Source: a virus
DNA length: 64,000 nt
Direction: 5' to 3' (one strand)
Virus record (IMG/VR): IMGVR_UViG_3300040811_000687
Shown here in pieces: positions 13,145 through 48,759 of this stretch. The notes beneath the pieces were generated by a model. The model worked only from the letters and a program-made list of their open reading frames with translations. It was not told the DNA's origin and made no database searches. The position numbers were made by a program, and so were the translations under genes. Position 1 is the first letter of the stretch; each line of letters begins with the position of its first letter.

Positions 13145-13830
13145 TTTGTGTATATTGGGGAAACAAGTATAGTCCTGATTATGTAAGTAAACTATACAAC
13201 ATGGTAAAAAGAAACCTTTCTATACCATTTAACTTTATAGTTTACACCGATCACATCCAGACCTTCACTCACGAAAATTATGATTTTAGAAATAACCAGA
13301 TACCTAATTACCAGACCAGAAAACTGCCTTTCACGAATTACGATGGGTGGTGGAACAAACTAACTCTATTCAGTCCAGAAGCCAACTTAAAAGGTACATG
13401 TTTATACTTTGATTTAGATGTAGTGATACTAGACAACATAGATGATATGGTATTGTTTGGTAAAGAGGACACCTTTGGTGTTATAAATGATTTTAATCCT
13501 GCCAGTGGTGTGTACAATTCAAGTATTATGAAATTCAACAATATTACAGCTGAACATATATGGACATCATTTAAAAAAGATGAAACTAATATGATGAGAA
13601 ACCATGGTGATCAACAAGTTATGAGCCATTTTATCAAATCAACTCCACATTGTAAGGTAATGCCAGACGAGTGGACATTTTCATACAAGTGGTTCTCCCG
13701 AGAGGCCCCCAGAATAGATAAATCGCAGTGGACATTTGACCAGAAACCGAATGCTAAAGTATGTGTGTTTCATGGCCAACCAAATCCACACGAATCAACG
13801 AAGAAATGGGTACAAGATAACTGGAAATAG
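13126..13830 (+). CDS. Putative glycosyltransferase (GT8-like)
   Basis: CVYWGNKY, WWNKLTLF, YFDLDVVI, NSSIM, GDQ, FHGQPNP. Confidence 0.8.
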   Translation: MELVNIVCVYWGNKYSPDYVSKLYNMVKRNLSIPFNFIVYTDHIQTFTHENYDFRNNQIPNYQTRKLPFTNYDGWWNKLTLFSPEANLKGTCLYFDLDVVILDNIDDMVLFGKEDTFGVINDFNPASGVYNSSIMKFNNITAEHIWTSFKKDETNMMRNHGDQQVMSHFIKSTPHCKVMPDEWTFSYKWFSREAPRIDKSQWTFDQKPNAKVCVFHGQPNPHESTKKWVQDNWK

Positions 13831-13844
13831 AACATAACCAGAAC
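13830..13844 (+). promoter_or_regulatory. Alphaproteobacterial LexA-type box GAAC-N7-GAAC
   Basis: GAACataaccaGAAC, ~43 bp upstream of the -35 at 13887. Confidence 0.65.
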
Positions 13845-13886
13845 ATTTTATATCTAAAACCCTTATCCCACAACAAAAAATAACGC

Positions 13887-13997
13887 TTGCTTTCTAGGCC
13901 TGGTATGATAGGATAATGATATGAAAACAAAAAAGATACTAATAAAAACAAATCTTACAAAAGACTTGTTGCCAAATGTACTTTTTTATGATAGGAT
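13887..13997 (+). promoter_or_regulatory. Tandem early sigma70-type promoters
   Basis: TTGCTT-16-TAGGAT (13887-13914) and TTGCCA-17-TAGGAT (13969-13997), both with extended TGn. Confidence 0.7.
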
Positions 13998-14033
13998 TAC
14001 TAATATAAACACTAACAAAAAGGATATAACACT

Positions 14034-14222
14034 ATGTCAAAAATAAAAGCATACATTGAAACGTCAGTAGAAAATGCTGTTGATAAATTTATTAACAAAT
14101 TAAAAGATGGTCAGATTGATCTAGATACTTGTAAATCAAAAATTCTAGAACTTGACAATTTAGCAATGGTTGGTATTGATGAAAATAATATTGATGAAGT
14201 AATAACAATGGAGATCCAATAA
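14034..14222 (+). CDS. Hypothetical early protein
   Basis: SD AAAGGA; first gene after the promoters. Confidence 0.75.
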   Translation: MSKIKAYIETSVENAVDKFINKLKDGQIDLDTCKSKILELDNLAMVGIDENNIDEVITMEIQ

Positions 14223-14464
14223 TGATTACAATGAACGAATTAAATAATTTATCAATAGCTCAATTACAAGACACAAAAGTTTTGATTGACACTATTGTAC
14301 AGAATAAAATCAAAAGAGAATTTAAAGTTGGTACAAAAGTTAACGTAGTACAAAAGACTAAAAAAACACCAGGTGTTATTACAAAAATAATGTCTACAAA
14401 ATGTTTAGTTGATTTAAATGGTAGAATTTATAGAGTATCAATGTCAATGTTGGAGGCTGCTTAG
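14222..14464 (+). CDS. Hypothetical protein, C-terminal SH3/KOW-like barrel
   Basis: Translational coupling; FKVGTKV..GVITKI pattern. Confidence 0.7.
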   Translation: MITMNELNNLSIAQLQDTKVLIDTIVQNKIKREFKVGTKVNVVQKTKKTPGVITKIMSTKCLVDLNGRIYRVSMSMLEAA

Positions 14465-14871
14465 TGAGTAAAAGTAAAGTTATTAGTTTAGTATACGGTA
14501 GAGAATACCAAGATTCAGATGAAAGATATGATGAATTTTTTTACATCTATAATACAGTATTCAGAAATGTACCTATGAAACATCTAAAGACTTTAAATAC
14601 TTTCAAAGAAAAAATTAGAAAATATTGTGATGATAATTTTAATGAAACTGCTAGTAATTTTTGTGGAAATACTACGGTTAAGATTATACATGGCGATGAC
14701 TATTATTCAACTTACGAAGATGTATTTGGTAAAGAAACAGTTGGCAGTGACAACTCATTATTTAATGATTATGGTCAATTGTGGAACGGTAGACAATTCT
14801 TTAAAAAAGATTATAATCCAAAATTAACAGAAAAATATACATACAAGAATTTAAACAGAGAGGCAAGCTAA
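14464..14871 (+). CDS. Hypothetical protein (GTG start)
   Basis: SD GGAGG; overlaps previous stop. Confidence 0.7.
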   Translation: MSKSKVISLVYGREYQDSDERYDEFFYIYNTVFRNVPMKHLKTLNTFKEKIRKYCDDNFNETASNFCGNTTVKIIHGDDYYSTYEDVFGKETVGSDNSLFNDYGQLWNGRQFFKKDYNPKLTEKYTYKNLNREAS

Positions 14872-15185
14872 TGAAATACGGTGAAGACAAGATTGTAAAA
14901 GAGATAGACGAGTATATTAAATCAACATACGGACAACACTATAGTACAACCGAAGACGGTTTCCAGGTACAAGATATGTTGAGACAATTAGATATTGATA
15001 AAGATTTTTGCCAAGCTAATGCCATTAAGTATCTTTGCAGATATGGTAAAAAAGACGGTAAAAACAGAAAAGATTTACTAAAGGCTATTCATTATATAGT
15101 TTTATTGATGAGTAGCGAAGATAAAACATCGGAAGTTTCATGGGCACCAGATAGTTTTCTAGAGCCAGAAACTAAACCAGAATAA
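14871..15185 (+). CDS. DUF3310/SaV-like phage protein
   Basis: HY...FCQANAIKYLCRYGKKDG..DLLKAIHY. Confidence 0.8.
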   Translation: MKYGEDKIVKEIDEYIKSTYGQHYSTTEDGFQVQDMLRQLDIDKDFCQANAIKYLCRYGKKDGKNRKDLLKAIHYIVLLMSSEDKTSEVSWAPDSFLEPETKPE

Positions 15186-15205
15186 CTAACAAAAGGAGAA
15201 CACTA

Positions 15206-15598
15206 ATGACAATAGATACAAATGTTATGGTAACGAAAGAAGATTTAGGTAAAAATCTTTATAGAAAAAAGACCTATTACACACTTTGCATAGAGCAAGA
15301 TGTGTTGGCAGATAATAAAGAAACTGCTGAAAATAAACTTAGCGACAATGGTATAGACCACTCTCAAATAAACCATGAGATCACTGAACAAAAAGATGGC
15401 GTTGAAACATATATGGTTGACGCTAACTATAGTGAATCAGGAGATATTGAGTATATTGGTAAAGTATCATATACAGATGATGAGTATGCTGAAGAAAACG
15501 GAGACGTTGAGATCAATTCAACGGCAGACGAGGTGTACATACCAGATGAGGTTGACACAATGATTAATATTAACGCTGAAGAAATGAGAGGTAAATAA
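15206..15598 (+). CDS. Hypothetical acidic protein
   Basis: SD AAGGAG; D/E-rich. Confidence 0.75.
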   Translation: MTIDTNVMVTKEDLGKNLYRKKTYYTLCIEQDVLADNKETAENKLSDNGIDHSQINHEITEQKDGVETYMVDANYSESGDIEYIGKVSYTDDEYAEENGDVEINSTADEVYIPDEVDTMININAEEMRGK

Positions 15599-15599
15599 T

Positions 15600-15794
15600 A
15601 TGTCACTACTACACGATTTGGACAGACCACTTCAAGACCTCAAAGAAATTAAGGTATCTTTAGGTAGTAAATGTCCTACAACTACTGATTTAATAGACAG
15701 TAAGATTAAAGAGTACGAATCAGATATAGACGCTGTTGATGAGTACTTAAAAAACGACAAAACCAATGGTTTATCAGAGGGACAACCAAGTTAA
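15600..15794 (+). CDS. Hypothetical protein
   Basis: SD GAGG; operon packing. Confidence 0.65.
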   Translation: MSLLHDLDRPLQDLKEIKVSLGSKCPTTTDLIDSKIKEYESDIDAVDEYLKNDKTNGLSEGQPS

Positions 15795-15822
15795 TCCAAT
15801 GAAATCAACACTTTTTAATGGC

Positions 15823-15851
15823 TTGACATTTATTAAAAAGTATGGTAGGAT
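15823..15851 (+). promoter_or_regulatory. Early sigma70-type promoter
   Basis: TTGACA-17-TAGGAT with extended TG. Confidence 0.8.
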
Positions 15852-15883
15852 AAAGACAACTAACTAACAAAAGGATATACTAT

Positions 15884-16216
15884 ATGTCATTTAGATACGA
15901 TACAGACAACTTATACAAAGAGTTTAAAGACGCAAAAAACAAAGATATTGCATTATCACAACATACTGATTTAGATAGTGCAGAAAATGACTACTTTACT
16001 AATAGAGTCAAATTTTGTGTAGATCACAAAGAACTTAAAATATCAAATCCTTCTTATTATGAGAACGTTGATATTAATTTTGACGCTTTAGAGAATGCAT
16101 ACAAGACTACCAACCCTAGAGATACATTTTATCAGATAGGATTTGGCATGACTTATGCAGAGAAGAAAGCCAAAGAACATTTAGAATCAGAAGCAAACCT
16201 TAACAAAGAAGAATAG
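15884..16216 (+). CDS. Hypothetical early protein
   Basis: Promoter plus SD AAAGGA. Confidence 0.75.
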   Translation: MSFRYDTDNLYKEFKDAKNKDIALSQHTDLDSAENDYFTNRVKFCVDHKELKISNPSYYENVDINFDALENAYKTTNPRDTFYQIGFGMTYAEKKAKEHLESEANLNKEE

Positions 16217-16479
16217 TGAAGAAGATCAAAGAAAGATATAGACCAATTAATATTAAGTTAGTGCATGGCACCAAAAAAATGCCAGACTATACTTTAGATA
16301 TTAATGGTATCAAGATGAACTCGTTACCAACGAGTGATAAGATTTCAGGCAGTTGTACTAAACGTAGTACTCCTAAAGTTACTTTGCCTGCTGGTAAAAC
16401 AATAGGGATCGGTTACAATAAGGGAACATATCAGGTTGTAGATTCTTCCGATTTCAAAACTATGGGACGTAAAGTATGA
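16216..16479 (+). CDS. Hypothetical basic protein
   Basis: Coupled ORF; GIGYNKGTYQVV C-terminus. Confidence 0.7.
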   Translation: MKKIKERYRPINIKLVHGTKKMPDYTLDINGIKMNSLPTSDKISGSCTKRSTPKVTLPAGKTIGIGYNKGTYQVVDSSDFKTMGRKV

Positions 16480-16709
16480 GGACTATGATGATGTTAACCA
16501 TTTGTGTATTGATGACAATGACAATGGCCAAAAGTGATGAGAAAAAAACAATTACACCACAAGAGTTTGGTAATGCAATTGCAGAAACACCAGGTAAACT
16601 TGTGAATTTTATTGGTAGTGAAGTTGAGAAAACAAAAGACTATCAAACTAAAGTTTGGGCTGAGGCAAAAACAAAATGGCCTTGGACAATGTTTAAGAAA
16701 AAAGACTAA
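16476..16709 (+). CDS. Hypothetical secreted protein
   Basis: Signal peptide; ATGA overlap. Confidence 0.7.
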   Translation: MRTMMMLTICVLMTMTMAKSDEKKTITPQEFGNAIAETPGKLVNFIGSEVEKTKDYQTKVWAEAKTKWPWTMFKKKD

Positions 16710-17182
16710 TGAGAACTATACTAATTATCTTAATCGGTTTAACACTAACCAACTGTGCCTCTACAAATAGATCACAAGTTGGTGCTGTGTTAGGTTCAAC
16801 TACCACAACTGGTGCATGTGTGAGTATGGGTGTTTCAGATCCATACGCTATAGGCGCCTGTGCTGTTGTAGGTGCGTTTGCCGGTGCAGAAATTATGTAT
16901 AATTCAGATTACGATGTACACAACGCAGTATTCGTAGATCATTTAAATAATGGTACAATGGGGTCAAGTTACACTAATTGGTACAATAAGAAAACAGGTA
17001 ATTCTGGTATCATAAAAGTGACCAAGTCGTACATAGAAGCAGGTTTCAAGTGTAAAGATTATGACGCTACAGTGGACATAACAAGTCAATGGCCGTTGAT
17101 CGGTGTTGGTGGTGTAAATAGAAATACTGTATTTGGTACTACTTGTCAGTTACCAGATGGTCGTTGGGTGGAGTTAAAATAA
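16709..17182 (+). CDS. Glycine-zipper lipoprotein, Rickettsia 17-kDa surface antigen-like
   Basis: Lipobox LTNC, glycine zipper, WYNKKTGNSG, CKDY, CQLPDGRW. Confidence 0.75.
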   Translation: MRTILIILIGLTLTNCASTNRSQVGAVLGSTTTTGACVSMGVSDPYAIGACAVVGAFAGAEIMYNSDYDVHNAVFVDHLNNGTMGSSYTNWYNKKTGNSGIIKVTKSYIEAGFKCKDYDATVDITSQWPLIGVGGVNRNTVFGTTCQLPDGRWVELK

Positions 17183-17370
17183 TGATACATAAAATAAGTG
17201 AACTATGTCAAAAGATTGATGGTATTAAAAAAGTGAGTGACAATCTATATAATATTAAGTACAATCAACCTAAAACTCCTGAAAGAGACGCTGAAGTGAA
17301 TGCTTTAATAGAAGACATACAATTACAATGTAAACTTGTAGCAAATGATAAAGGTGAATATGACAGATAA
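17182..17370 (+). CDS. Hypothetical protein
   Basis: SD GGAG; start revised to MIHKIS. Confidence 0.65.
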   Translation: MIHKISELCQKIDGIKKVSDNLYNIKYNQPKTPERDAEVNALIEDIQLQCKLVANDKGEYDR

Positions 17371-17518
17371 TCCTACAGTGAATAGATTAAAAGAAGAAAA
17401 GAAACAAATTATAGAACAAATGGATCATTATCAAGGCAGAGACGAAACAAAAATACGCCAACTTGAAGATGAACTTTTTGAAGTTAATGATACGTTAAAG
17501 AAATTAAAGGTACAATGA
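17360..17518 (+). CDS. Small coiled-coil protein, 52 aa (not in ORF track)
   Basis: MTDNPTVNRLKEEKK...; fills the gap, ATGA overlap with the next gene. Confidence 0.65.
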   Translation: MTDNPTVNRLKEEKKQIIEQMDHYQGRDETKIRQLEDELFEVNDTLKKLKVQ

Positions 17519-17994
17519 ATAAATTTTTAGTAATATTAATGATACTTACAGTAAGTGCCAAAGCAGATCATGGTCATGGTGAGAATGGTGATCTATCTGG
17601 TCTAGTTGTGCCTATAAAAAATGTTGAGGTATCAGATACCGTTAATAAGACTATTGAAGTATTAGACAAAATTGAGAGAGTTGAGAAAGAGAAAGACAAA
17701 GTTTATTATAACAAGATTACAACTGTAGAACCTAAAAATGCAGCTGACCAATATTGTTATGTCAAAATTACCATAAAAGAAACAGATAACACTATTACTA
17801 AAGAGGAAACTTTAGAGTGTGCTGATGGTAGAAAAAAAGTAGATGGACCAAGTTATTGGGAACTGTTTGCTCAGTTTTACTATAGAGATATCTCTACACC
17901 AGAGTACTGTAGAACTTATAGTAGACCAAACCATGTCTTTAAATCGTTCGGAAAGACATGTCTTAACAAGGACGGTGAATGGAAGGTAAAATAA
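17515..17994 (+). CDS. Hypothetical secreted protein
   Basis: Signal peptide; C-terminal GKTCLNKDGEW resembles the end of 16709..17182. Confidence 0.7.
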   Translation: MNKFLVILMILTVSAKADHGHGENGDLSGLVVPIKNVEVSDTVNKTIEVLDKIERVEKEKDKVYYNKITTVEPKNAADQYCYVKITIKETDNTITKEETLECADGRKKVDGPSYWELFAQFYYRDISTPEYCRTYSRPNHVFKSFGKTCLNKDGEWKVK

Positions 17995-18140
17995 TGATTA
18001 AAAATATGATCATTTTATCACTTTTATTTGTAATTATTACTGGTATCTCGGCTGGAGAGTTTCTTGACTATGTTCAAATGGGACTTGACAAATTAGGTCA
18101 ACTAGTATATACTATGAAAAGTGAGGTAAATAATATATGA
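17994..18140 (+). CDS. Small membrane protein, 48 aa (not in ORF track)
   Basis: MIKNMIILSLLFVIITG...; coupled at both ends. Confidence 0.6.
   Translation: MIKNMIILSLLFVIITGISAGEFLDYVQMGLDKLGQLVYTMKSEVNNI
18085..18113 (+). promoter_or_regulatory. Sigma70-type promoter
   Basis: TTGACA-17-TATACT. Confidence 0.7.
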
Positions 18141-18760
18141 TGAAAAACAAAGTAAGTAAACTTATTGGAGTATGTGTGGCAGGCCTATTAGTGGCTAACT
18201 GTTCAGCAACTTACAATATGAAATCAGAAAAAGGCAAAGTATTAAATCAAGTACCGAAGTGGTACATGTCCGATTTTTCTGAATCAAAAGCATGTGATAC
18301 GCCAAGATTTGGTAAAGACAAAGATAAAATGTGTATCTTTGGTGTTGGTACTGCTGTATCGCCAGACTTAAATCTAGCAATAGAAAAAGGTATGATGATA
18401 GCAAAAGCAGAGTTAGCTGACATTATCAAAGGCGAAATGAATAAGTCTAGTAAACAATTCATCACTGAACTAGGAAAGAATAATAACAAGACAACTGTAT
18501 CAGAGGTTGAGTCTACAATTGTAAACTTAATTAAAGAAACACCAGTTAGAGGTTATGAAATCTTTGCTAAAGATGTAACTATTACTAAAAACGGTTACTA
18601 CAGAGCTTGGATTGGTTTAAGATTACCAATGGGTGAATTTAACAAGATGTATAATTTCACTATTGAGGAAGCTGTAGATTCTTATAACGTTAAGATGAAA
18701 GCAAATGTGGCTTATGAAAACTTAATGAAAGATACAAATGAAAATAGTAATATACAGTAA
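18137..18760 (+). CDS. LPP20-like lipoprotein
   Basis: Lipobox VANC, VPKWY, FGVGTAVS, AKAELA. Confidence 0.7.
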   Translation: MMKNKVSKLIGVCVAGLLVANCSATYNMKSEKGKVLNQVPKWYMSDFSESKACDTPRFGKDKDKMCIFGVGTAVSPDLNLAIEKGMMIAKAELADIIKGEMNKSSKQFITELGKNNNKTTVSEVESTIVNLIKETPVRGYEIFAKDVTITKNGYYRAWIGLRLPMGEFNKMYNFTIEEAVDSYNVKMKANVAYENLMKDTNENSNIQ

Positions 18761-19013
18761 AAAGAACTGTCAATTTTGTGGCAAGGCCAAAGACTTGGTT
18801 AAGAAACTTGGCCTTGAATACACAGAAAAAAATCTAGAGAAAGACTTTGATTCTAATCCTATGAAATTAATAGAAGATATAGGTAAAAAAGTCATGTCTA
18901 TGCCACAAGTTAAAATTGATGATGAGTTAGTTGGTGGTTATAACCAGATGTTAGAATACTTTGTTGAAAAAGGTATGATAAATTTTCAAGGCGAAGTAAT
19001 TAACAATGGCTGA
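18738..19013 (+). CDS. Glutaredoxin
   Basis: IYSKKNCQFC, SMPQV, VGGY. Confidence 0.9.
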   Translation: MKIVIYSKKNCQFCGKAKDLVKKLGLEYTEKNLEKDFDSNPMKLIEDIGKKVMSMPQVKIDDELVGGYNQMLEYFVEKGMINFQGEVINNG

Positions 19014-19494
19014 TAACGAAAATGTAATACAGTTTCCTACAAATAAAATTGTAAGAAACGTAGATACTGAAAACCAAAAGGCACAGAATAAGATTAACGA
19101 GCAGTTAAAACAAAAACAAACAAAACAATTTATTGAACACCAGGTAGACGATATAGTTATGAATTTAATAAACAGTTTTTTAGACCTAGCAATCAAAACA
19201 GATAAGATTACATTTACAAAAGACTTAGCTATGGTTGTTGACGCTATGAGAGGACTAATATACAGAGACTTTGGTATGAGACATACTTCACATACGTTGA
19301 TTGATAAAATTGTTGATGTTAAACAAATGAAAAATGGTCATAGAACAGCCACCATAGACTACAGTAGAGTTATGGAATCAGGTAAACCAACTAAACCATT
19401 TAACAAAGAACTTAAAACTGAACTAGATGACCTATCAAATGGTTCTAGTATTTTTGAATCAGATAGTGATTTAGATAACGATGATGACAAATAG
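19006..19494 (+). CDS. Hypothetical protein
   Basis: NVIQFP N-terminus; acidic tail. Confidence 0.75.
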   Translation: MADNENVIQFPTNKIVRNVDTENQKAQNKINEQLKQKQTKQFIEHQVDDIVMNLINSFLDLAIKTDKITFTKDLAMVVDAMRGLIYRDFGMRHTSHTLIDKIVDVKQMKNGHRTATIDYSRVMESGKPTKPFNKELKTELDDLSNGSSIFESDSDLDNDDDK

Positions 19495-19571
19495 AATTTA
19501 CAGAATTACTCCGGTAATCGCCTCAGCAGGTTGTAAAATAGCAACTAATAATAATAAAGGAGACTTAAACA

Positions 19572-19862
19572 ATGTTTAAATCTATTAAAAATGCGCTTAG
19601 AGGTAGAAAATCTTTAAGTAAAACTCAAAAGGTATTAAATCTTTTGAACAAAGGTGAAGCTGTATCTTGGAAAACGCTAAGAAACAAGTTTGACCTTAAA
19701 TCGCCAAGAGCGATGGTTGATAAATTAAGATCACAAGGTAATATGATCTATATCAACAAAACAGCAAAAGGTACTTCATACAGAGTTGGTACTGCCTCAA
19801 AAGCTATTATAGCTGCCGGTATTACTAAGCTTTATGGAACTCCATTCGCTTACAAGAACTAG
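19572..19862 (+). CDS. Basic winged-HTH nucleic-acid-binding protein
   Basis: KVLNLLNKGEAVS..SPRAMVDKLRSQGNMIY; strong SD. Confidence 0.7.
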   Translation: MFKSIKNALRGRKSLSKTQKVLNLLNKGEAVSWKTLRNKFDLKSPRAMVDKLRSQGNMIYINKTAKGTSYRVGTASKAIIAAGITKLYGTPFAYKN

Positions 19863-19874
19863 TATAGTTAGTAT

Positions 19875-19894
19875 GGTGGCGAGAAATCGCCACC
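19875..19894 (+). terminator. GC-rich hairpin with GAAA loop (terminator or stabiliser)
   Basis: GGTGGCGA-GAAA-TCGCCACC; lacks a U-tract. Confidence 0.6.
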
Positions 19895-19915
19895 TACACC
19901 AACCAACGGAGATTT

Positions 19916-20125
19916 ATGTCAAGCAAAGCACAACTTAAAAAACAAATTGAAACATTACAAGAGACCAACAAATGGTTTAAAAAACAAATAGAACCACATG
20001 ATTGTGGCTGGATGTACACCACTATTGATGGTATCAAATATAGAATTAAAGTATTAAAAGAAAGATTAAGAGCAAAAGAAAAAGGTAAATTAATCAAAGA
20101 AAAACATTGGAGTGATTACGAATGA
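19916..20125 (+). CDS. Hypothetical protein
   Basis: SD GGAG; ATGA overlap with rnh. Confidence 0.7.
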   Translation: MSSKAQLKKQIETLQETNKWFKKQIEPHDCGWMYTTIDGIKYRIKVLKERLRAKEKGKLIKEKHWSDYE

Positions 20126-20973: not shown

Positions 20974-20994
20974 CACATATATGGAGAATAAATT

Positions 20995-21522: not shown

Positions 21523-21603
21523 AAACCTCACATTTTTAAGGGTGCGACACAACGTACCCTTGAAAAACCCTTATAAATCAACACTTTTAAATTTTTTTTC
21601 TGC

Positions 21604-21632
21604 TTGACTTTTATGTCAGGTTGTGGTATCCT
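21604..21632 (+). promoter_or_regulatory. Sigma70-type promoter
   Basis: TTGACT-17-TATCCT with extended TG; hairpin at 21538-21561 upstream. Confidence 0.7.
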
Positions 21633-21662
21633 AAATATATAAAAAGAAAGGTATATTACATT

Positions 21663-29653: not shown

Positions 29654-30262
29654 ATGCATGATGGATTTGACGTATTTAAAACATATCTGGCAATAAAACT
29701 ACATTTTACTACAGATAACTATGACTATTTTGATTATGGTGGTAAAGTTAATTGTAAACTAGATACATTTACGAAAAGAAATGATAGGTATTTCTTTCAT
29801 AAATTGAGTAAGCAGTATGATAAATATAATATAGTAGATTTCTTTGTTGCTAATTTTTTAGACAACGATAAGAAATGGGTAGGAAACTTATTAGAAAAAG
29901 ATGGCAAAACTATTTACCTCAATTATAGACGATATTCAGATAGTGTTAATTACCATTTTAGAGGTGATTGTACAAATATTAGTACCGATTTTGTTAGTCA
30001 TGGTCTTTCTTTTGACGATGGTTTATCTCCTGTTAGAGGCCAGCATCCACGCCTGCTTAAACTTCTTCTCTCCAAAAAAGTAAACTTTCAAACAATGGTG
30101 ATTCTAAATTACCATTTGAACTTCATAAAACAATGGGACAAACAGATTACAGAGAAGTTTGTATGGCCTAATCTATCAAAACGTCTTAAAAAACATAGAA
30201 AATTCATCAAATTCAACGAAACAGAGACTAAATTAACGTTAAAGAACGTGTTTGTTCACTAA
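29654..30262 (+). CDS. gp59: Helicase loader gp59
   Basis: YLAIKLHFT..YDYFDYGGK..KRNDRYFF. Confidence 0.9.
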   Translation: MHDGFDVFKTYLAIKLHFTTDNYDYFDYGGKVNCKLDTFTKRNDRYFFHKLSKQYDKYNIVDFFVANFLDNDKKWVGNLLEKDGKTIYLNYRRYSDSVNYHFRGDCTNISTDFVSHGLSFDDGLSPVRGQHPRLLKLLLSKKVNFQTMVILNYHLNFIKQWDKQITEKFVWPNLSKRLKKHRKFIKFNETETKLTLKNVFVH

Positions 30263-30268
30263 ATGTTC
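30254..30268 (+). promoter_or_regulatory. Alphaproteobacterial LexA-type box GTTC-N7-GTTC
   Basis: GTTCactaaatGTTC, 14 bp upstream of the -35 TTGCCT at 30283. Confidence 0.65.
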
Positions 30269-30337
30269 TGGTTGTTATTTTCTTGCCTTTTTGTTAAAAA
30301 TAGTGTATTATATAACAATAACAAAAGGGAAAACACT

Positions 30338-31498
30338 ATGAAAAAATATGTAACATTTATTATAACACTAAACATCTTACTATGGTTTGGTTTATCTAAC
30401 ATTGCTAAAGCTCATCATAAAGCAGAAAGTCACGAGTTTAGGCATGGTATATCTTGGTCAGCACCAGGTAGTGAGAACTATCAAAAACTAGAAACAGAAT
30501 TAGTTGATAACAAGATTTCTAAACTTGTTGATAAACAATTACAAAACCAAGAAAAAACTGGTTTGGCTTCATACGTTATTTTTTCAGATGGTAAAATTAG
30601 AATTAATAAAAATAAATGGAATGATGAGATTAAAAAGAACAAAGGTTTATTAATATCAAACTCTGTAGGTAAATCTATGATCTCTTATGTTACAGGTCAT
30701 GCTGTTTGTAAGTATGGTATTGATCTAAATGCCAAAATGAATGATTGGGCTGTTTTAAATAATACTTTGTATGCCGATAACACCTTATTACAAGCACTTA
30801 ACATGAAAGCCGGCGATCACAATATAGTTGGTGAAAGAAAATTTAGAGGTGATGGTTTTATTAATGGTAACAAGTATAAAAGAATTAACACTAAAACTGT
30901 TACTTGGAATATGCAATACTTCAAAGACACAAAAAAGAAAAAAGAAAATTCTATATATAATTATAGTGCAATGTCAACACAAGTTGCAATTAATTATGTT
31001 ATACACAAGATTGGTGTAGATAATTATGAGAACTTTCTAAAAGAAATATTTACTGATCATGTTGGTGTAAAAAACGATGTTCACTTTAGTAAAGTTTCTT
31101 GGTCAAAAGCCGATGATGATAAAGGTAATGCTAGATATACTTTCTTTGCTACTGCTGAAGATTATATTAGAATAGGTAAAACATTATACAATGATTACCA
31201 TTCAGATAGTTGTATTGGTGATTATCTAAGATTTATTTATGACAACAGAGTTAAGAAAAATGTTAAAGATTCAAGAATAACTAATAAACACTCGGCGGCT
31301 GCTACATATGAATATGGTGGTCAAATTCATTTTTCATATAAAGGTATGAAAAAAAGAGTTATTTTTGCAATGGATGGTTATGGTGGTCAACAGTTAATTA
31401 TTGATATGGATAATGGTACAATTCTCCATGTTGGTGCAATTGATGAACATTATAACTGGAACAAAATAGTTTATAACGTAATGAAGAAAGGACTTTAA
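30338..31498 (+). CDS. Secreted beta-lactamase/PBP-fold serine hydrolase (start revised to MKKYVT)
   Basis: SxxK (SVGK), YNYS, DGYGGQ; signal peptide; own promoter at 30283-30311. Confidence 0.8.
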   Translation: MKKYVTFIITLNILLWFGLSNIAKAHHKAESHEFRHGISWSAPGSENYQKLETELVDNKISKLVDKQLQNQEKTGLASYVIFSDGKIRINKNKWNDEIKKNKGLLISNSVGKSMISYVTGHAVCKYGIDLNAKMNDWAVLNNTLYADNTLLQALNMKAGDHNIVGERKFRGDGFINGNKYKRINTKTVTWNMQYFKDTKKKKENSIYNYSAMSTQVAINYVIHKIGVDNYENFLKEIFTDHVGVKNDVHFSKVSWSKADDDKGNARYTFFATAEDYIRIGKTLYNDYHSDSCIGDYLRFIYDNRVKKNVKDSRITNKHSAAATYEYGGQIHFSYKGMKKRVIFAMDGYGGQQLIIDMDNGTILHVGAIDEHYNWNKIVYNVMKKGL

Positions 31499-40353: not shown

Positions 40354-40355
40354 TT

Positions 40356-41988: not shown

Positions 41989-42239
41989 ATAATACAATGA
42001 ATAAACTGATAGATAAAATCAACAAATCCATAGAAACGGTCTCTCTGGAGGCCTTTGATAAGGCATACTCTTATAAACTCTTATATTTCTATAAGGGCCA
42101 ACAAGAAGTAATAAACACAATGAAACTTGAAGCTAAAGACAAGCTAGCGCATGTCTTGGCCTATATGGGGTATAGGTTATATCACAATCCGTTGAATAAG
42201 GCAAGGGATAAGTATAATGCGTACAAAGAAAAGAAATAG
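41985..42239 (+). CDS. Hypothetical protein
   Basis: SD GAAAGG. Confidence 0.55.
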   Translation: MNNTMNKLIDKINKSIETVSLEAFDKAYSYKLLYFYKGQQEVINTMKLEAKDKLAHVLAYMGYRLYHNPLNKARDKYNAYKEKK

Positions 42240-42300
42240 GCATTTATGACGTATAGCGTAGTGATTAAAAATAAACATTTATCGGAAAATATTTAAGCAT

Positions 42301-43449
42301 ATGGCAAGATTTATAGGAAAGAATACAGATTTTACATGGTTTTCAGGTGTAGTAGAAGACAGACATGACCCTCTCTTTGCTGGCCGTTTAAGAGTTAGAT
42401 GTTTAGGTTTTCATACAGACAACAAGAGTGAGTTACCTACAGAGGACTTACCATGGGCTATGTGTGTGTTATCAACGGCCTCACCAGGTATTTCTGGTCT
42501 TGGCCAATCTCCTTCTTTTCTTGTTGAGGGTAGTTGGGTGTGGGGATACTTTCGGGACTCTGGCCACCAAGAGCCAGTGATTATTGGTTCTTTACCTGGT
42601 AAACCCTATGATCTTGGCAATCCTAATAAAGGATTTAGTGATCCAAATCGTAGGTCGGAGGATGAGGAGGAAGAAGAATACAATCAATCAGTTTATCCTA
42701 AGGAGACAGGTGAGGTAGATACCAATAGATTGGCCGTTAATGATAGTGAGAAAGAACATACTTCGTTGACTACACGTAAGGCCGATAGAGAAAACAATTT
42801 GGATATACCAACGGCAGACTTTGATACAATAACGGCAGCCGATGGATCAAGTATAATCGCAAGTGATTCGGACACCTGGTCACAGCCGGTCATCCCTTAC
42901 TCGGCCGTTTATCCATATAATCATGTGTTTGAGAGTGAACAAGGCCATATCAAAGAATACGATGATTCATGGGAATATGATGAGTACACAAACGAATACC
43001 ACTATTACACACGTATACACGAAAGACACAAAAGTGGTACAGGTTATGAAATAGATAACAGTGGTAATATTGTAAAGTTGGTAAAGGCCAGCAGTTACGA
43101 AATAATTGACGGTGACCACTATGTAAATATCAAACAGGACTCCGACATTACCATTAATGGCCGTCATAAGATATTCATTAACAAAGATGGCTTTGAAAAT
43201 AACCATTACGACATACACGTAGGTGCCAACGCCAATATTAATATACAAGTAGACACAGGCGATATCAATATGGTTACCAAAGGTGGCCGTATCAATGTGA
43301 ACGCAGGCGGTGATTATAATGTTAAAGTAGGTGGTAATTACACATTATCAGTAGATGGTAATAAACAAGAAGATGTAGCAGGTTCTAAAACATCAAACAC
43401 AACAGGCGCAGTAGTACATAGAGGGGCTACAATAGATTTAAATCCGTAG
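42301..43449 (+). CDS. gp5: Baseplate central spike gp5 (OB-fold plus beta-helix, no lysozyme domain)
   Basis: GVVEDRHDP..GRLRVRCLGFH, DLPWA, YPYNHVFESE.GH, C-terminal IDLNP. Confidence 0.92.
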   Translation: MARFIGKNTDFTWFSGVVEDRHDPLFAGRLRVRCLGFHTDNKSELPTEDLPWAMCVLSTASPGISGLGQSPSFLVEGSWVWGYFRDSGHQEPVIIGSLPGKPYDLGNPNKGFSDPNRRSEDEEEEEYNQSVYPKETGEVDTNRLAVNDSEKEHTSLTTRKADRENNLDIPTADFDTITAADGSSIIASDSDTWSQPVIPYSAVYPYNHVFESEQGHIKEYDDSWEYDEYTNEYHYYTRIHERHKSGTGYEIDNSGNIVKLVKASSYEIIDGDHYVNIKQDSDITINGRHKIFINKDGFENNHYDIHVGANANINIQVDTGDINMVTKGGRINVNAGGDYNVKVGGNYTLSVDGNKQEDVAGSKTSNTTGAVVHRGATIDLNP

Positions 43450-43618
43450 AGATATTTTTCCATATATGGCTCGCTATTGGCCATATGGTACCAGGATTTA
43501 ATCTATAAATGCAATAACAATCATTAGCATTGTTCTTATCTTAATTTTTTTCCTGGAGGATTTTCCTGGTGGCTGGAAGCAGGCCATACCTTTCTTTATC
43601 TCGTATTACATATTAGGC

Positions 43619-43647
43619 TTGACTTTAGTCATAATACCAGATATAGT
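43619..43647 (+). promoter_or_regulatory. Sigma70-type promoter
   Basis: TTGACT-17-TATAGT; ATG 6 nt downstream. Confidence 0.75.
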
Positions 43648-43653
43648 ATACCT

Positions 43654-43743
43654 ATGGACATCATACTCGCAATACTAGTGCCAGCCATACCATTAGGTTT
43701 AGTTACTTTATTACTTCTATTTTGGAATAACGAGAAGCCCTAA
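43654..43743 (+). CDS. Leaderless 29-aa hydrophobic peptide (not in ORF track)
   Basis: MDIILAILVPAIPLGLVTLLLLFWNNEKP; ATG at promoter +1. Confidence 0.6.
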   Translation: MDIILAILVPAIPLGLVTLLLLFWNNEKP

Positions 43744-43765
43744 ACTGTCACAGCCTATACATTGG

Positions 43766-43980
43766 CCGTTTCTTATACATAACGGTGTAGTTCCGTAAGG
43801 AAAGCTCCTAGGTCCATAAGGCCTGAAACTTACATATTCACATTATAATCACTCTAAAAAGGATAAATAGTATTAGAAGCATTATGCTTTTTATATTATC
43901 CTCAAATTGATTTTTTTATACAGTAGAGTTCTTTCCTGTTTAAACGAAAGAATGACTATGGCATCCAATAAGGACATAGT
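43766..43980 (+). ncRNA. Candidate structured RNA element(s)
   Basis: Six hairpins visible in a gap with no ORF, including TTCC-GTAA-GGAA. Confidence 0.35.
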
Positions 43981-43999
43981 AAAAAATAAAAAGGATTAA

Positions 44000-44326
44000 A
44001 TGGCAAAATTGCAAAAATATGCTTTGATGGCATTAAAGAAGAAATCACCTAAAGTACCTAATTATACATGTACAGATATTGATAATATTATTACGACTCT
44101 TGGCCAATTACACGAAGGCACGAAAAAGATGACGAAGTTGCGTTTAGATGTTTTAGAACGTAAATTAGAAAGATTAAGAAGTTCTAATGAGTCGTTAAGG
44201 GATAGTGGTATCTACTGGTATGGTGTCTGTAAGAAGATTATTAAAAGTGTTAAGAACGTTAAGAAGGCCACTTTAAGTAAAGTAAATAAAAAAAATCGGA
44301 AAAATCGGAAATTAAACTCTGATTAA
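44000..44326 (+). CDS. Hypothetical basic protein
   Basis: SD AAGGA; YTCTDID..LERLRSSNESLR. Confidence 0.7.
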   Translation: MAKLQKYALMALKKKSPKVPNYTCTDIDNIITTLGQLHEGTKKMTKLRLDVLERKLERLRSSNESLRDSGIYWYGVCKKIIKSVKNVKKATLSKVNKKNRKNRKLNSD

Positions 44327-44344
44327 TACTAGGAGAGAAGTAAA

Positions 44345-44563
44345 ATGGGAGAATATTTTTTAGTTATCGTATTTTGTATGTTTGGTGAATGTCAGAATTT
44401 GGATCAACCAAAAGCTTTTGGTAGTTATGGAGAATGTTACGAACAGGCTCAAGCAACAGCAATGATGATGAATAGACAATATCCAAACAGTACAGGTGAA
44501 ATCTATTGTTTAGACAAAGAACAATACAAGTTGTATCTGGAAGCATTTGATGAAAGTGCATAA
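44345..44563 (+). CDS. Small Cys-containing secreted/membrane protein
   Basis: SD AGGAG; four Cys. Confidence 0.65.
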   Translation: MGEYFLVIVFCMFGECQNLDQPKAFGSYGECYEQAQATAMMMNRQYPNSTGEIYCLDKEQYKLYLEAFDESA

Positions 44564-44571
44564 ATATAAGT

Positions 44572-45234
44572 ATGATAGAGAATACTTTCAAAAAAAGAAA
44601 ACATGTTTTACATTATGATACAAAGGACATACCTACACAAGAACAAATAACAGATATACTTACAAAAGCTATACCTTTAGCTACCAGTAAACAAAAGGCA
44701 TTTGCTTTTAAAGCATTTGTTTTAGGACCTGATTTAGTAAGAAGTGATAAGTTACTTACTGCTTGTGAAGGTGAAAATGATGAAATGAATAGAAAACTTG
44801 GTGAACAGAATCTTCCATCTGATCCAAATCCAGGTCTATTACATTTAGCAACAGCTCCTTATACATTAATATGGACACCAAGATTAGTTGATCCTAATAC
44901 ATATCATAAGAAAAAATTTATGCAAAAAAAAGGTGCATGGGAAATGAATAATTCCTCAAGTATTTTGAAATGTAAACAAATATCTATAGAAATTGGTATG
45001 ATGTCCAAGATGGTTATGGGTGTTGCTTTAGATTCAGGTTTAGATTCTTCTTTTTGTTTATGTTATAGTAGGATATTAAGTGATTGGAAACCTTTTATAC
45101 CTCAAATTGAATTTTCTCCAATCTTAATACAAACAATAGGAAAAGCAAAATCATATTACTGGGAAATGTTAACACCTGAAGAAAGTATAGATAATACCAA
45201 TCCAACAATAGAAGACTTATTTAAATTCGTATGA
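44572..45234 (+). CDS. Nitroreductase-like protein
   Basis: KKRKHVLHY, TSKQ, GLDSSFC; late-type CATAAATA at 44559. Confidence 0.65.
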   Translation: MIENTFKKRKHVLHYDTKDIPTQEQITDILTKAIPLATSKQKAFAFKAFVLGPDLVRSDKLLTACEGENDEMNRKLGEQNLPSDPNPGLLHLATAPYTLIWTPRLVDPNTYHKKKFMQKKGAWEMNNSSSILKCKQISIEIGMMSKMVMGVALDSGLDSSFCLCYSRILSDWKPFIPQIEFSPILIQTIGKAKSYYWEMLTPEESIDNTNPTIEDLFKFV

Positions 45235-45539
45235 TAACACTTACAGATAAAGCAAAACAACATTTACAATCACTAAAAGAAAAACATAATGTTAAGTATG
45301 TGAGACTTGAAGTTAAAGGTGGTGGTTGTGCTGGTTTTGAATATGAATGGAGTTTTGATAATGAATCTAGTTCAGATGATATGGTCGTTGAAGATTTATT
45401 AGTGATTGATAGTTTATATGAATTGTATATAATGGGTATGGAGTTAGACTATAAAGAAGAAATCTTTGGTAGTAACTTTGTATTTAATAATCCAAATGCT
45501 AAAAGTTCTTGTGGTTGTGGAACCTCTTTTAGTGTGTAA
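45231..45539 (+). CDS. A-type Fe-S carrier (IscA/SufA/ErpA, HesB family)
   Basis: GGGCAGFEY, NPNAKSSCGCGTSF. Confidence 0.93.
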   Translation: MITLTDKAKQHLQSLKEKHNVKYVRLEVKGGGCAGFEYEWSFDNESSSDDMVVEDLLVIDSLYELYIMGMELDYKEEIFGSNFVFNNPNAKSSCGCGTSFSV

Positions 45540-45556
45540 CTAAATAGTTTTATATT

Positions 45557-46240
45557 ATGGAAACAAACAGTCAGAAAATAAAAGAATACACAAAAAAAAA
45601 TGGTGTTGAAGTTAAGGAAAATAGTTTCTTTGATAGAAGACATAGAAGATTAAATATTGATCTTTCTCATAGATGTCCTTTAGAGTGTTTACGTTGTGGT
45701 CGTCAAATAAGTTTTTTATTTAAAGGACTAAAAGTACCAGGTAGGGATTTAACTATAGAAGAATTTGAAAAGATAACAGATCATTTTAAAAGTATATCAT
45801 TTTGTGGTCAATATTCAGACCCTATACATCACCCAAAATTTAAAGAATTATTAGAAATATCAAAAAGAAAAAACGTTAGAGTAGAGGTACATGTTGCTTC
45901 TTCACTTAAACCAGAAAAAGCATACATTGAAGCTTTTAAAGCTTACCCACAGGCAGATTGGATTTTTGGTATTGATGGTTTACCTAAAGAAAGTCACAAG
46001 TATAGAAAAAACCAAGATGGGGAAAAACTATTTAAAATAATGTTAGAATCTAAAAAACATCTTATTAAAAAACCATTATGGCAATTTATTATCTTTAGTT
46101 ATAACGAACACAATTTGAATAATGCAATGCAAATGGCCAAAGATAATGATGTTGATTTTGTATTAATAAATTCAGCTAGATGGAGTGCCGATGATGATTG
46201 GTTAATGCCAAAAACTAGGAGAGAAATGACAGATGAGTAA
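45557..46240 (+). CDS. Radical SAM protein
   Basis: CPLECLRC (CxxxCxxC), CGQYSDP, FGIDGL; late-type ACTAAATA at 45539. Confidence 0.88.
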   Translation: METNSQKIKEYTKKNGVEVKENSFFDRRHRRLNIDLSHRCPLECLRCGRQISFLFKGLKVPGRDLTIEEFEKITDHFKSISFCGQYSDPIHHPKFKELLEISKRKNVRVEVHVASSLKPEKAYIEAFKAYPQADWIFGIDGLPKESHKYRKNQDGEKLFKIMLESKKHLIKKPLWQFIIFSYNEHNLNNAMQMAKDNDVDFVLINSARWSADDDWLMPKTRREMTDE

Positions 46241-46616
46241 ACTTGATAACAGATTAGGAGGAAAAAAAAGAAGAGCTGAAGGAGATATTGAATTGGATCC
46301 TTTATGTTTTAAAGATGAGATTGCTTTTGCAGTCACTAATCAAGGTGTATTAGTACCTTGTTGTAGATTTGACGACCCAGCAACTATGGGTGATACTCAA
46401 ATGAAACCTTTAATAGAAGCAAGTAAAATTTCCGAAAATAATACAATAGATGATATTTTGAAAAAAGAAGAATGGAAACAATTTGCAGATAACTTATCAA
46501 AAAATATAGGACCTGCTGCTTGTTTAACTACATGTGCTAAAGCAAAAAAATATACACAAGTAGTAGAGTGGATAGATACAGAAAAAGGTGTAGCAACTAG
46601 TGTGGAAAAAAAGTAA
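46233..46616 (+). CDS. Stand-alone SPASM/twitch-like Fe-S domain protein
   Basis: C...VTNQGVLVPCC...CLTTC. Confidence 0.65.
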   Translation: MSKLDNRLGGKKRRAEGDIELDPLCFKDEIAFAVTNQGVLVPCCRFDDPATMGDTQMKPLIEASKISENNTIDDILKKEEWKQFADNLSKNIGPAACLTTCAKAKKYTQVVEWIDTEKGVATSVEKK

Positions 46617-46672
46617 CCCACACCCAAACCAAAAAGGCTATGATGGCTAACTAAATATATAAAGGATAAATT

Positions 46673-47089
46673 ATGAACGATAAAAAAGTAGGATTTACAT
46701 GTAGTACTTTTGATTTGTTACATGCTGGCCATGTACAAATGTTGAAAGACGCCAAAGACCAATGCGATTACTTAATCGTAGGTTTACAAACAGACCCAAC
46801 TATAGATAGACCTGACACCAAAAATAAACCAATACAAACATTGGTAGAAAGAGGTATACAGTTATCAGCAGTTAAGTATGTAGATGAAGTTATTACGTAT
46901 CAAACTGAACAAGACTTGGAAGATATATTAACAATGTTTAATATATCAGTAAGAATTATGGGAGAAGAATATCAAGGTACAGACTTCACAGGTAAGGAGA
47001 TATGTGTTAAGAAACATATAAAGATAGTTTACAACAAAAGAGATCACCGTTTTTCATCAACGGATTTAAGAAAAAGAATTAAAAATTAG
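46673..47089 (+). CDS. Cytidylyltransferase (TagD-like)
   Basis: TFDLLHAGH, IVGLQTD, VDEV, FSSTDLR. Confidence 0.9.
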   Translation: MNDKKVGFTCSTFDLLHAGHVQMLKDAKDQCDYLIVGLQTDPTIDRPDTKNKPIQTLVERGIQLSAVKYVDEVITYQTEQDLEDILTMFNISVRIMGEEYQGTDFTGKEICVKKHIKIVYNKRDHRFSSTDLRKRIKN

Positions 47090-47099
47090 GAGAAAAAAT

Positions 47100-47324
47100 A
47101 TGAGTAATTTTGACAGTCACGACAAAGATCACGATCACGATAGATCGTATGAAAATGAATCTACAAGAGATACAACACCTATGGTTTCTATATCATTAAG
47201 AGAATATGATAAGTTAAAATCAAGAAGTGCTTTCATCACAGACAAAGCAACGATTGATATTATAGATAATCTTGAAAGACTTGTTAGAGCATTAAGAAAA
47301 CATATAATTAGATCAGAGATTTAA
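47100..47324 (+). CDS. Hypothetical protein with His/Asp N-terminus
   Basis: SD AGGAG; DSHDKDHDHD. Confidence 0.7.
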   Translation: MSNFDSHDKDHDHDRSYENESTRDTTPMVSISLREYDKLKSRSAFITDKATIDIIDNLERLVRALRKHIIRSEI

Positions 47325-47585
47325 TTATCTGTGATATACGGCAAAAGTTGTCGCCATGTTCATATGACAAAATGATTGTGGTCTTTTATAGAATTGAGTA
47401 GAGTTTCCTCTATATCTATATCTAATCTTTTTTGCATTTTTTTGAGCAGATACTTCTTTAAAGTAATTTAAATATTTAATTGGTATATTTGAAGCAATAC
47501 AACTACCAACAGGTGTTAAGTGTTTTAATAATAATGGGTTAACAACCCTTTCAAATATTTTTTTTTGTCTTGTTTTATTTTTCAT
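47325..47585 (-). CDS. Hypothetical basic protein
   Basis: Coupled in the minus-strand operon. Confidence 0.7.
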   Translation of the reverse strand: MKNKTRQKKIFERVVNPLLLKHLTPVGSCIASNIPIKYLNYFKEVSAQKNAKKIRYRYRGNSTQFYKRPQSFCHMNMATTFAVYHR

Positions 47586-47929
47586 TATACTCCTACTCCG
47601 TAATGTCTATAATCAACAATTGGCATAAAGTCATAAGCGTATTCATTATCAGGTAATGCACCCGACATTTGAACATGACAATCATTTTTCTTTCTATTAT
47701 CAAAAAAAGTTTGTAAAGTCTTCTTTAAGTTATTTGCCATTTGTTCATGTATTGAAACATTAAACTTAGCAAACAATGTACCACACATAATAGTACAATC
47801 AGTAGCACTTTCAGCTAATGCAAGTTTCATTATGTCTTTTCTTAATTGAATAGACTCGTTTTTATCATCAGCCATTTCTTGACCTTGTTGTTCTTGTAAT
47901 CTTAACTCGTTATATTTTTCTGGTGTCAT
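47585..47929 (-). CDS. Hypothetical protein (start revised to MTPEKY)
   Basis: SD GAGGA. Confidence 0.7.
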   Translation of the reverse strand: MTPEKYNELRLQEQQGQEMADDKNESIQLRKDIMKLALAESATDCTIMCGTLFAKFNVSIHEQMANNLKKTLQTFFDNRKKNDCHVQMSGALPDNEYAYDFMPIVDYRHYGVGV

Positions 47930-47931
47930 AA

Positions 47932-48315
47932 TTATCCTCTCAATCTTGATTGTGAATCCATATACAAAGGACCAGTCCATCTAACATGGTAATTACCGTC
48001 AAGTACATTACCTCTAGCTTTGTTTAGTGCAGGAGCATTAAAACCAGCAGCCTTTAATATGTCGCCTTTTTTAAAATGTTTAAAGTCTTCTTTTACGATA
48101 AAAGCAAATACTCCGTTTTCTTTTACAACTTTCATATACTTTTTACCTTGTGATACTTTAATCATATTGTCCCAATTGTCAATTTGTTCTTGTGAGTAAG
48201 TTGAAACATTACCATTTTTATCTGTAGTCCAAGAAATATAATCTTCTTTGGCACCGTTCATCATATTCTTAACTCCTTCATCTAAAGAAGTTGCGTTTTT
48301 AGTTACTAATGACAT
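47932..48315 (-). CDS. Conserved phage hypothetical protein
   Basis: GDILKAAGFNAPALNKARGNV, WTGPLY; SD AAGGAGG. Confidence 0.8.
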   Translation of the reverse strand: MSLVTKNATSLDEGVKNMMNGAKEDYISWTTDKNGNVSTYSQEQIDNWDNMIKVSQGKKYMKVVKENGVFAFIVKEDFKHFKKGDILKAAGFNAPALNKARGNVLDGNYHVRWTGPLYMDSQSRLRG

Positions 48316-48497
48316 TATTTGTCCTCCTTGTATAAGTCTTGAGCATATAAAGCTAAGATATAAGACGCAATACCTATCAAGGCCATTGAAGCACCTTGTA
48401 AATATTTGTCTATTTCAATTGAACCTACGGCACCAACCATTGCTAAAGTACCGACTGTCGCCATTATTACCGACATGTATTCTATTATTTTTTTCAT
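48315..48497 (-). CDS. Small 2-TM membrane protein (start revised to MKKIIE)
   Basis: SD AAAGGA; hydrophobic. Confidence 0.7.
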   Translation of the reverse strand: MKKIIEYMSVIMATVGTLAMVGAVGSIEIDKYLQGASMALIGIASYILALYAQDLYKEDK

Positions 48498-48532
48498 AGT
48501 GTATCCTTTTGTTTTTTTCATATTACTTGTCC

Positions 48533-48561
48533 ACTATACCAGATAAATACAGTAAAGTCAA
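48533..48561 (-). promoter_or_regulatory. Early sigma70-type promoter, minus strand
   Basis: TTGACT-17-TATAGT with extended TG. Confidence 0.8.
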
Positions 48562-48579
48562 GAAAAAAAAGCGTAAAAT

Positions 48580-48759
48580 ATGAAAATAATTAAAATAATT
48601 GCAGTTTGTTCACTTTTTGTACTGGTTTCCTGTTCAAAAACTGTTGAGGATTGTAAAATTAAGCCGAATTTAGAAAAAATTAGCGAATCAGCGCTAAAAA
48701 ATAAAGAAAATTTAAGTGAAACTGAGCTAAAACATGCTCAAATGTCTTGTAAATTTTAA
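48580..48759 (+). CDS. Small lipoprotein, 59 aa (not in ORF track)
   Basis: MKIIKIIAVCSLFVLVSC lipobox. Confidence 0.55.
   Translation: MKIIKIIAVCSLFVLVSCSKTVEDCKIKPNLEKISESALKNKENLSETELKHAQMSCKF
48608..48622 (-). promoter_or_regulatory. LexA-type box, one mismatch (GTTC-N7-GTAC on +)
   Basis: ~46 bp upstream of the minus-strand -35; flanks match the 30254 site. Confidence 0.55.

Follow-up and report, generated by a model that had tools for sequence, protein, structure and literature searches.

Putative operators for the host SOS repressor LexA beside early transcription units of a pelagimyophage

Temperate phages and mobile elements are known to co-opt the SOS repressor LexA, among them GIL01 with gp7, CTXphi and coliphage 186 with tum (Fornelos et al. 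2016, as relayed in PMC9437464). Virulent phages may likewise carry sites for host regulators, as phi29 does for Spo0A and as alphaproteobacterial phages do in the form of CtrA boxes, an arrangement discussed as 'lytic deferment' (PMC9437464). Non-canonical effects of LexA, positive or distal, have been described for recA of Rhodobacter sphaeroides (dual activity; PMC101838), for hox of Synechocystis and for M. tuberculosis, all as relayed in PMC3381160. In alphaproteobacteria the LexA motif is GTTC-N7-GTTC (PMC8565304). Here we analyzed a 64,000-nucleotide stretch of viral DNA (IMG/VR record IMGVR_UViG_3300040811_000687, hereafter the window), in which an earlier note had singled out three boxes of this type, termed S1, S2 and S3 below. 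The phage boxes are, in our estimate, likely to be LexA sites. We favor, at a probability of roughly 0.6, the reading that S1, S2 and S3 are operators for host LexA that would couple the adjoining phage transcription units to LexA cleavage, during an SOS response induced by ultraviolet (UV) light or by infection. The basis for this reading is fourfold: identity with host operator sequences, purifying selection at the DNA level, restriction to myophages of SAR11, and the lack of a phage LexA.

The window is closest to the Pelagibacter phages Mosig EXVC030M and HTVC008M (72-73% identity over conserved genes; G+C content of the window, 32%), and sequence similarity marks it as a pelagimyophage, kin of these two. 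The nearest cultured relatives have Pelagibacter HTCC1062 as host, from which we infer SAR11 as the host of the window phage; the relatives are classed as T4-like lytic myophages of the Kyanoviridae. SAR11 genomes were reached by a 16S probe, and LexA was called at the curated cut-off of TIGR00498. All five SAR11 genomes tested encode a LexA above this cut-off, with UmuD as the second match, recA was found in four of the five, and umuDC is also present in SAR11; a host devoid of lexA, which the earlier note had named as a ground for giving up its proposal, is therefore not what these genomes show. In Pelagibacter, lexA, recA and umuDC are co-induced, also under pelagiphage infection (PMC2864753, PMC12753301). 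A LexA homologue was sought in the window, HTVC008M and Mosig and none was found, and a phage-encoded LexA was accordingly rejected as the binder of the boxes.

The lexA, umuD and recA promoters of SAR11 yielded the extended SOS consensus AGAAC-N6-WGWACA. Across 41 genomes this pattern has ~4 matches per genome, with the same few operators recurring, and the stricter AGAACN6AGAACA has only 2 copies in a 1.4-Mb SAR11 genome, at lexA and umuD. Two more recurrent host boxes flank nrdAB, one in the divergent intergenic region between pgm, a phosphoglucomutase-like gene, and nrdA and one at the 3' end of nrdB. As a by-product, these data define a SAR11 SOS box and point to a very small regulon of ~4-5 chromosomal LexA operators, serving lexA, umuDC, recA and probably the ribonucleotide reductase genes nrdAB. 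The phage sites conform to this pattern. As the earlier note had held, they are of the alphaproteobacterial LexA type: S1 and S2 contain an exact GTTC-N7-GTTC, S3 contains a GTAC variant, and the host SOS operators share the extended sequence. The GTAC half-site variant is also present in the host recA operator, in the opposite half from S3, and several 17-mers of the phages have exactly the sequence of host umuD operators.

S3 falls where two units diverge, a four-gene early operon on the minus strand, with which it is co-directional, and the baseplate/late operon. It is not intergenic but lies inside an open reading frame (ORF), where it forms signal-peptide codons 10-15 of a 59-aa lipoprotein. 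At the corresponding locus of relatives, 79 of 80 contigs carry an exact or one-mismatch box upstream of the 127-aa gene, with at least 20 different spacer sequences, and several lineages have three tandem half-sites at an 11-nucleotide (nt) phase. Within the lipoprotein signal peptide the box occurs in every reading frame (7 in frame 0, 7 in frame 1 and 18 in frame 2), at codon positions of the overlapping ORF ranging from 4 to 60 and mostly from 4 to 24, which argues that selection acts on the DNA and not on the peptide. In L204-type loci, which have no lipoprotein gene, the box is non-coding and inverted. Retention of S3 merely as a conserved signal-peptide code was rejected on both counts.

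S1 stands where the main block of small early genes is entered, and its first bases double as the TAG stop codon of a glycosyltransferase-like gene. Among IMG/VR relatives in which the upstream protein retains at least 70% identity, the intergenic region is conserved in only two places, the box and the promoter, with 39-42 nt of diverged spacer between them. In one relative (L027) the box has shifted 30 nt off the stop codon, with its distance to the promoter unchanged. A lineage at 55% (L031-L033) has an intrinsic terminator at the S1 position instead of a box.

As controls, patterns of the same composition (other spacings, reversed or permuted) were counted in the fetched loci. Exact boxes numbered 60 against 0-4 for the controls at S3 loci, 15 against 0 at S1 loci and 5 against 0-4 at S2 loci; the relatives' loci are akin, so that these raw counts overstate independence, an effect mitigated by the distinct box variants and the frame shifts. 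Among 51 sites chosen on the core GAAC-N7-GAAC only, A stood at position -1 in 49, as in the host, before the second half-site in 45 and after it in 47. These comparisons indicate that S1 and S3 are under purifying selection at the DNA level across pelagimyophages. S2 behaves differently. Its box is exact or has one change (CGAACA) down to 78% gp59 identity, with diverging sequence downstream, and is absent at 60% gp59 identity and from Mosig and HTVC008M. The conservation in relatives that the earlier note had proposed to check was thus observed at the DNA level for S1 and S3, whereas S2 is kept in close relatives only. An ORF starting at ATG 30263 was considered as the cause of S2 conservation and rejected, as its frame is stopped in L008.

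Among myophages, the distribution of the boxes follows the host. HTVC008M and Mosig, both of which infect SAR11, have 4 and 2 exact boxes, respectively, all at gene stop codons upstream of promoters or in the orthologous lipoprotein ORF. Four cyanomyophages and the OM43 phage Melnitz together contained 3 exact boxes in 907 kb, with no enrichment, and in three pelagipodophages of SAR11 boxes did not exceed the reversed control. One of the podophages, HTVC011P (NC_020482.1), has a single exact box, AGAACAACTATAGAACA, at 3346-3362 on the minus strand of a genome otherwise not enriched. Melnitz (MZ577097.1) has CTGT-N8-ACAG 6 times against 2 for the reversed control, the fit to the gamma/beta SOS consensus being poor; Mosig has 0 copies of this pattern and HTVC008M has 3.

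Taken by itself, the window is a weak case, and it is the host and related-phage data that make it strong. Box counts for this phage cover the 64-kb window. The three strings given in the earlier note and the shared flanks of S2 and S3 were all recovered, but its list was incomplete, since a further exact GTTC-N7-GTTC lies at 8302. With that site included, the bare motif occurs 3 times against 1.44 expected, a count reached in 17 of 100 shuffles; the GTTC..GTAC variant is expected 1.3 times. The extended AGAAC-N6-WGWACA has 3 exact matches (S1, S2 and 8301) against 0.36 expected (P ~0.005, first-order Markov model). At the 8301 site the peptide YLFSKGSM is invariant in 46 comparable relatives, while synonymous drift leaves 0-5 box mismatches. 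This match is demonstrably a chance site outside the system and serves as an internal negative control.

Table 1. Positions of the boxes, promoters and genes discussed in the text. Coordinates refer to the window unless another genome is named.
Feature	Position	Strand	Sequence	Remarks
S1 core	13830-13844	+	GAACataaccaGAAC	exact direct repeat GAAC..GAAC
S1 extended LexA-type box	13829..13845	+	AGAACATAACCAGAACA	11/11 consensus positions
Glycosyltransferase-like gene	13126..13830	+		ORF; phrog_1962 glycosyltransferase, E 9e-21
Early sigma70-type promoter after S1	13887..13914	+	TTGCTT, 16-nt spacer, TAGGAT	TG-extended (TGaTAGGAT)
Second promoter downstream of S1	13969-13997	+
S2 core	30254-30268		GTTCactaaatGTTC	exact direct repeat
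S2 extended LexA-type box	30253..30269	-	AGAACATTTAGTGAACA	11/11 consensus positions
gp59 helicase-loader gene	29654..30262	+		ORF; homology to annotated gp59 genes
Promoter after S2	30283..30311	+	TTGCCT-17-TATTAT	13-14 nt downstream of S2
Secreted 386-aa protein	30338-31498	+		signal peptide, SVGK motif; served by S2-side promoter
S3 core	48608-48622		GTTCactttttGTAC	45 nt upstream of minus-strand promoter
S3 extended LexA-type box	48607..48623	-	AGTACAAAAAGTGAACA	10/11 positions; mismatch is GTAC, first half-site
Early promoter of divergent operon	48533..48561	-	TTGACT-17-(TG)TATAGT	near-consensus
Divergent early operon, four small genes	47325..48521	-		68-aa membrane protein, 127 aa, 131 aa, 86 aa
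59-aa lipoprotein gene	48580..48759	+		ORF, lipobox LVSC; first of baseplate operon
Chance match	8301..8317	-	AGAACCTTTGCTGAACA	inside coding sequence 7457-8560; exact consensus match
Host lexA operator			AGAACTTTTATAGAACA	overlaps core promoter, co-directional with gene
Host umuD operator			AGAACAAAACAAGAACA	overlaps core promoter, co-directional with gene
Host recA operator			AGAACAAAATGTGTACA	overlaps core promoter, co-directional with gene
nrdAB-flanking boxes	SAR11 genome L355, 1433-1449 and 4220-4236	- and +		pair recurs in 6 or more further SAR11 genomes

The surroundings of the three sites are summarized in Table 1. In the box-less relatives L031-L033, a GTGCC..GCAC element fills the S1 position. 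HTVC008M carries a perfect palindrome, GTGCGA-N4-TCGCAC, 5 nt downstream of its LexA boxes (L260 1524-1539, corresponding to HTVC008M 133428-133443); variants occur in L258 and L262, the L031-L033 element is related to it, and the window holds no exact copy. The palindrome near the HTVC008M boxes could be the site of a second regulator or a small hairpin. S2 spans the TAA stop of gp59, so that the last gp59 codons lie inside the box. The gene that follows had been labeled a serine hydrolase in the earlier note, a label that found no backing in Pfam or PDB; its 386-aa secreted product had no sequence match in Pfam, PHROG or PDB. In the ~78% lineage (L008-L011 and L182-L197), S2 and S3 share a change at box position 12 (TGAACA to CGAACA), which may be a coincidence or may reflect adaptation of both operators to a variant host LexA.

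The proteins of the divergent operon, searched against Pfam and PHROGs, gave only a weak match to DUF7717 / phrog_5014, for the 127-aa protein. Within the spacer of the minus-strand early promoter that serves this operon, a late-promoter-like GATAAATA is found at 48543-48550 on the plus strand, facing the lipoprotein/baseplate operon, and this arrangement of back-to-back overlapping promoters is kept in close relatives. A ~38-nt cassette, AAAAACCCTTATAAATCAACAC followed by a T-rich run, occupies 21563-21600 of the window, where the early promoter TTGACT at 21604 is directly preceded by a late-type TATAAATC of the cassette. Distant relatives (L234, L246 and L250, at ~1680-1720) have an almost unchanged copy in their S3 region, as the 5' end of the lipoprotein ORF. 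The cassette is reminiscent of the mobile promoter cassettes known as PeSL in T4-type phages.

In the 40 distinct box-promoter pairs compared, a gap of 9-79 nt separates the upstream box from the -35 element, with main groups at 39-48 and 55-61 nt, and box centers fall at about -53 to -123. In none of the 40 pairs does the box overlap the core promoter, which bears out the earlier note in placing the sites upstream of, not over, the promoters, and which makes classical occlusion unlikely. Its similar distances of ~43-46 bp for S1 and S3 hold in the window, where S1 lies 42 nt from the -35 hexamer TTGCTT (13887) and S3 45 nt from its own, but are not fixed in relatives. The pairs show weak helical phasing (for a 10.5-nt period, R is 0.33), the nominal p being 0.013 for non-independent sequences and 0.17 on unique distances. 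Neither a fixed spacing nor a strict helical phase relative to the -35 element was supported by these pairs. Rejected were cryptic promoters under S1 or S3, none being conserved, and a constant relation of the box to TATAAATA late promoters, many boxes having none within 110 nt.

In the mechanism that we propose, LexA dimers would sit on the boxes in an undamaged, freshly infected cell and modulate the adjoining promoters of host RNA polymerase. Activation of RecA, by UV damage or by infection itself, would then lead to LexA cleavage and loss of this modulation, such that the transcription units would track the SOS state of the host or the time since infection. As to direction, our first guess is a damping of very strong, UP-element-rich promoters that would be lifted upon LexA cleavage; activation of a class-I-like kind is our second choice. 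The earlier note had also envisaged a lysis or dormancy switch, for which we found nothing in support: the boxes are promoter-distal, and the downstream genes, compared with Pfam, PHROGs and PDB, gave no match to an antirepressor or regulator. The MotA/AsiA system by which T4 runs its middle mode is lacking in pelagimyophages, in which middle promoters were not found either (PMC7029224). LexA cleavage might conceivably supply their missing temporal and environmental switch, with phage operators also draining host LexA, an extension of the model that we regard as doubtful.

Several observations weigh against the operator reading. The spacing to the promoter is variable and the phasing weak, the promoters are near-consensus and need no activator, and none of the 40 boxes is on a core promoter, unlike host operators, so that a simple repressor model misfits. 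The boxes often hug the upstream stop codon, and a role at the end of the upstream gene or at a late promoter fits at least equally well. S3 overlaps coding sequence, and its GTAC half-site stands where host operators never show it. The count of bare GTTC-N7-GTTC in the window is not significant, and the assignment of SAR11 as host comes from similarity alone. Finally, S2 has the opposite orientation to its promoter and is restricted to close relatives. The proposal of the earlier note that early units are wired to the host SOS state stands in part, being favored by the LexA-type sites and by DNA-level selection at S1 and S3.

In one alternative, LexA would act on transcription from elsewhere, either as a roadblock or an insulator where the upstream gene ends (3' end) or through an operator for TATAAATA-type late promoters. 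The first version would cover S1, S2, three boxes of HTVC008M and Mosig, and the second the divergent S3 region. The box is on or touching the upstream stop in six cases, at 9-79 nt from the next -35 element, and the terminator of L031-33 replaces the box at the S1 position. The box of L204-type loci ends 8 nt before the TATAAATA of the MAKMR gene, and S3 lies ~50 nt downstream of the late-like GATAAATA on the other strand. However, no steady geometry relates box to late element, many boxes being farther than 110 nt from any, and LexA would probably have been cleaved already by late times. LexA is not known to act as an efficient elongation roadblock, which counts against the first version. 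We consider this alternative unlikely.

LexA might instead bind the phage boxes in order to be removed from the chromosome, replicated phage operators pulling it off host recA, umuDC and nrdAB and thereby providing SOS functions and deoxynucleotide (dNTP) supply without damage. The numbers would allow this, as each host genome has only ~4 operators and 3-4 phage operators multiplied by replication would outnumber the 4-5 of the host in a tiny SAR11 cell. It also fits with the conserved host box in the pgm/nrdA intergenic region, with the joint rise of host nrd and SOS genes in pelagiphage infection (PMC12753301) and with phage core promoters free of boxes. A sponge, though, needs no fixed place, yet the boxes stay at the same promoter-side loci across divergent lineages; there are merely 2-4 sites per genome, with no arrays beyond the triple half-sites; and the infection data stem from a podophage without box enrichment. 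Titration, too, thus strikes us as improbable.

Still less probable, in our estimation, is that an unidentified phage protein binds the repeats, their likeness to the host SOS box being convergence or mimicry. For most early proteins of the phage no function is known, and the boxes lie upstream of promoters where host operators lie over them. Such convergence would nonetheless have had to reproduce 11 specified positions and the A-rich start of the spacer, to the point of 17-mers that equal host umuD operators; moreover, the window, HTVC008M and Mosig contain no LexA-like protein, and the related phage Melnitz, from a non-alphaproteobacterial host, shows no enrichment. Chance tetranucleotide repeats without function in an AT-rich genome, for which the non-significant bare count and the demonstrable chance match at 8301 might be invoked, are hardly credible and were rejected for S1 and S3 in view of conservation amid diverged flanks, the excess of 60 over 0-4 for control patterns, the use of all three coding frames and the host-specific distribution.

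SAR11, the most abundant bacterium of the ocean, dominates the surface-ocean plankton together with its phages, yet next to nothing is known about how pelagimyophage infection is controlled. A comparative paper, the main one on pelagimyophages, mentions neither LexA nor SOS boxes and reports few regulators (PMC7029224), and in the library searched we found no paper linking LexA or SOS boxes to these phages. A conserved set of LexA operators, as suggested by the sequences compared here, would constitute a concrete link from sunlight and UV damage, or from infection-induced SOS, to viral gene expression. If the doubtful extension of the model to a temporal switch is true, the host repressor would serve one of the ocean's most abundant virus-host pairs as a clock and at once as a sensor of damage, and early units with LexA on their control regions would form a class of their own that changes its output once infection or daytime UV activates RecA. 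A host-specific operator of this kind could also mark uncultured myophage contigs as having alphaproteobacterial, SAR11-type hosts.

The phage boxes share with the SOS box of the host its direct repeat, its extended half-site AGAACA and the A-rich start of its spacer. They differ in placement, as host SOS operators overlap the -35/-10 elements or the transcription start, whereas the phage boxes stand 9-79 nt upstream of the -35 element, often on a stop codon or in a divergent ORF. Sites upstream of promoters do have a counterpart in the non-canonical LexA cases, one of which is alphaproteobacterial; those cases concern chromosomal genes and have experimental support, the phage operators being putative. 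With phi29 and the CtrA phages the window phage would share promoter-side sites for a global regulator of the host and an infection programme tied to host physiology, the signal being DNA damage or LexA cleavage rather than sporulation or the cell cycle, and the sites numbering 2-4 rather than forming arrays. With temperate phages that co-opt LexA it would share the coupling of phage transcription to RecA-mediated LexA cleavage via host operators in the phage genome. In those phages, however, the operator covers the promoter of an antirepressor or lytic gene and governs the switch from lysogeny to lysis, whereas the window phage is by kinship a T4-like lytic myovirus with promoter-distal boxes beside small early genes. 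On the operator reading, LexA co-option would reach beyond temperate elements into a T4-like lineage that is strictly lytic, in an unusual promoter-distal geometry.

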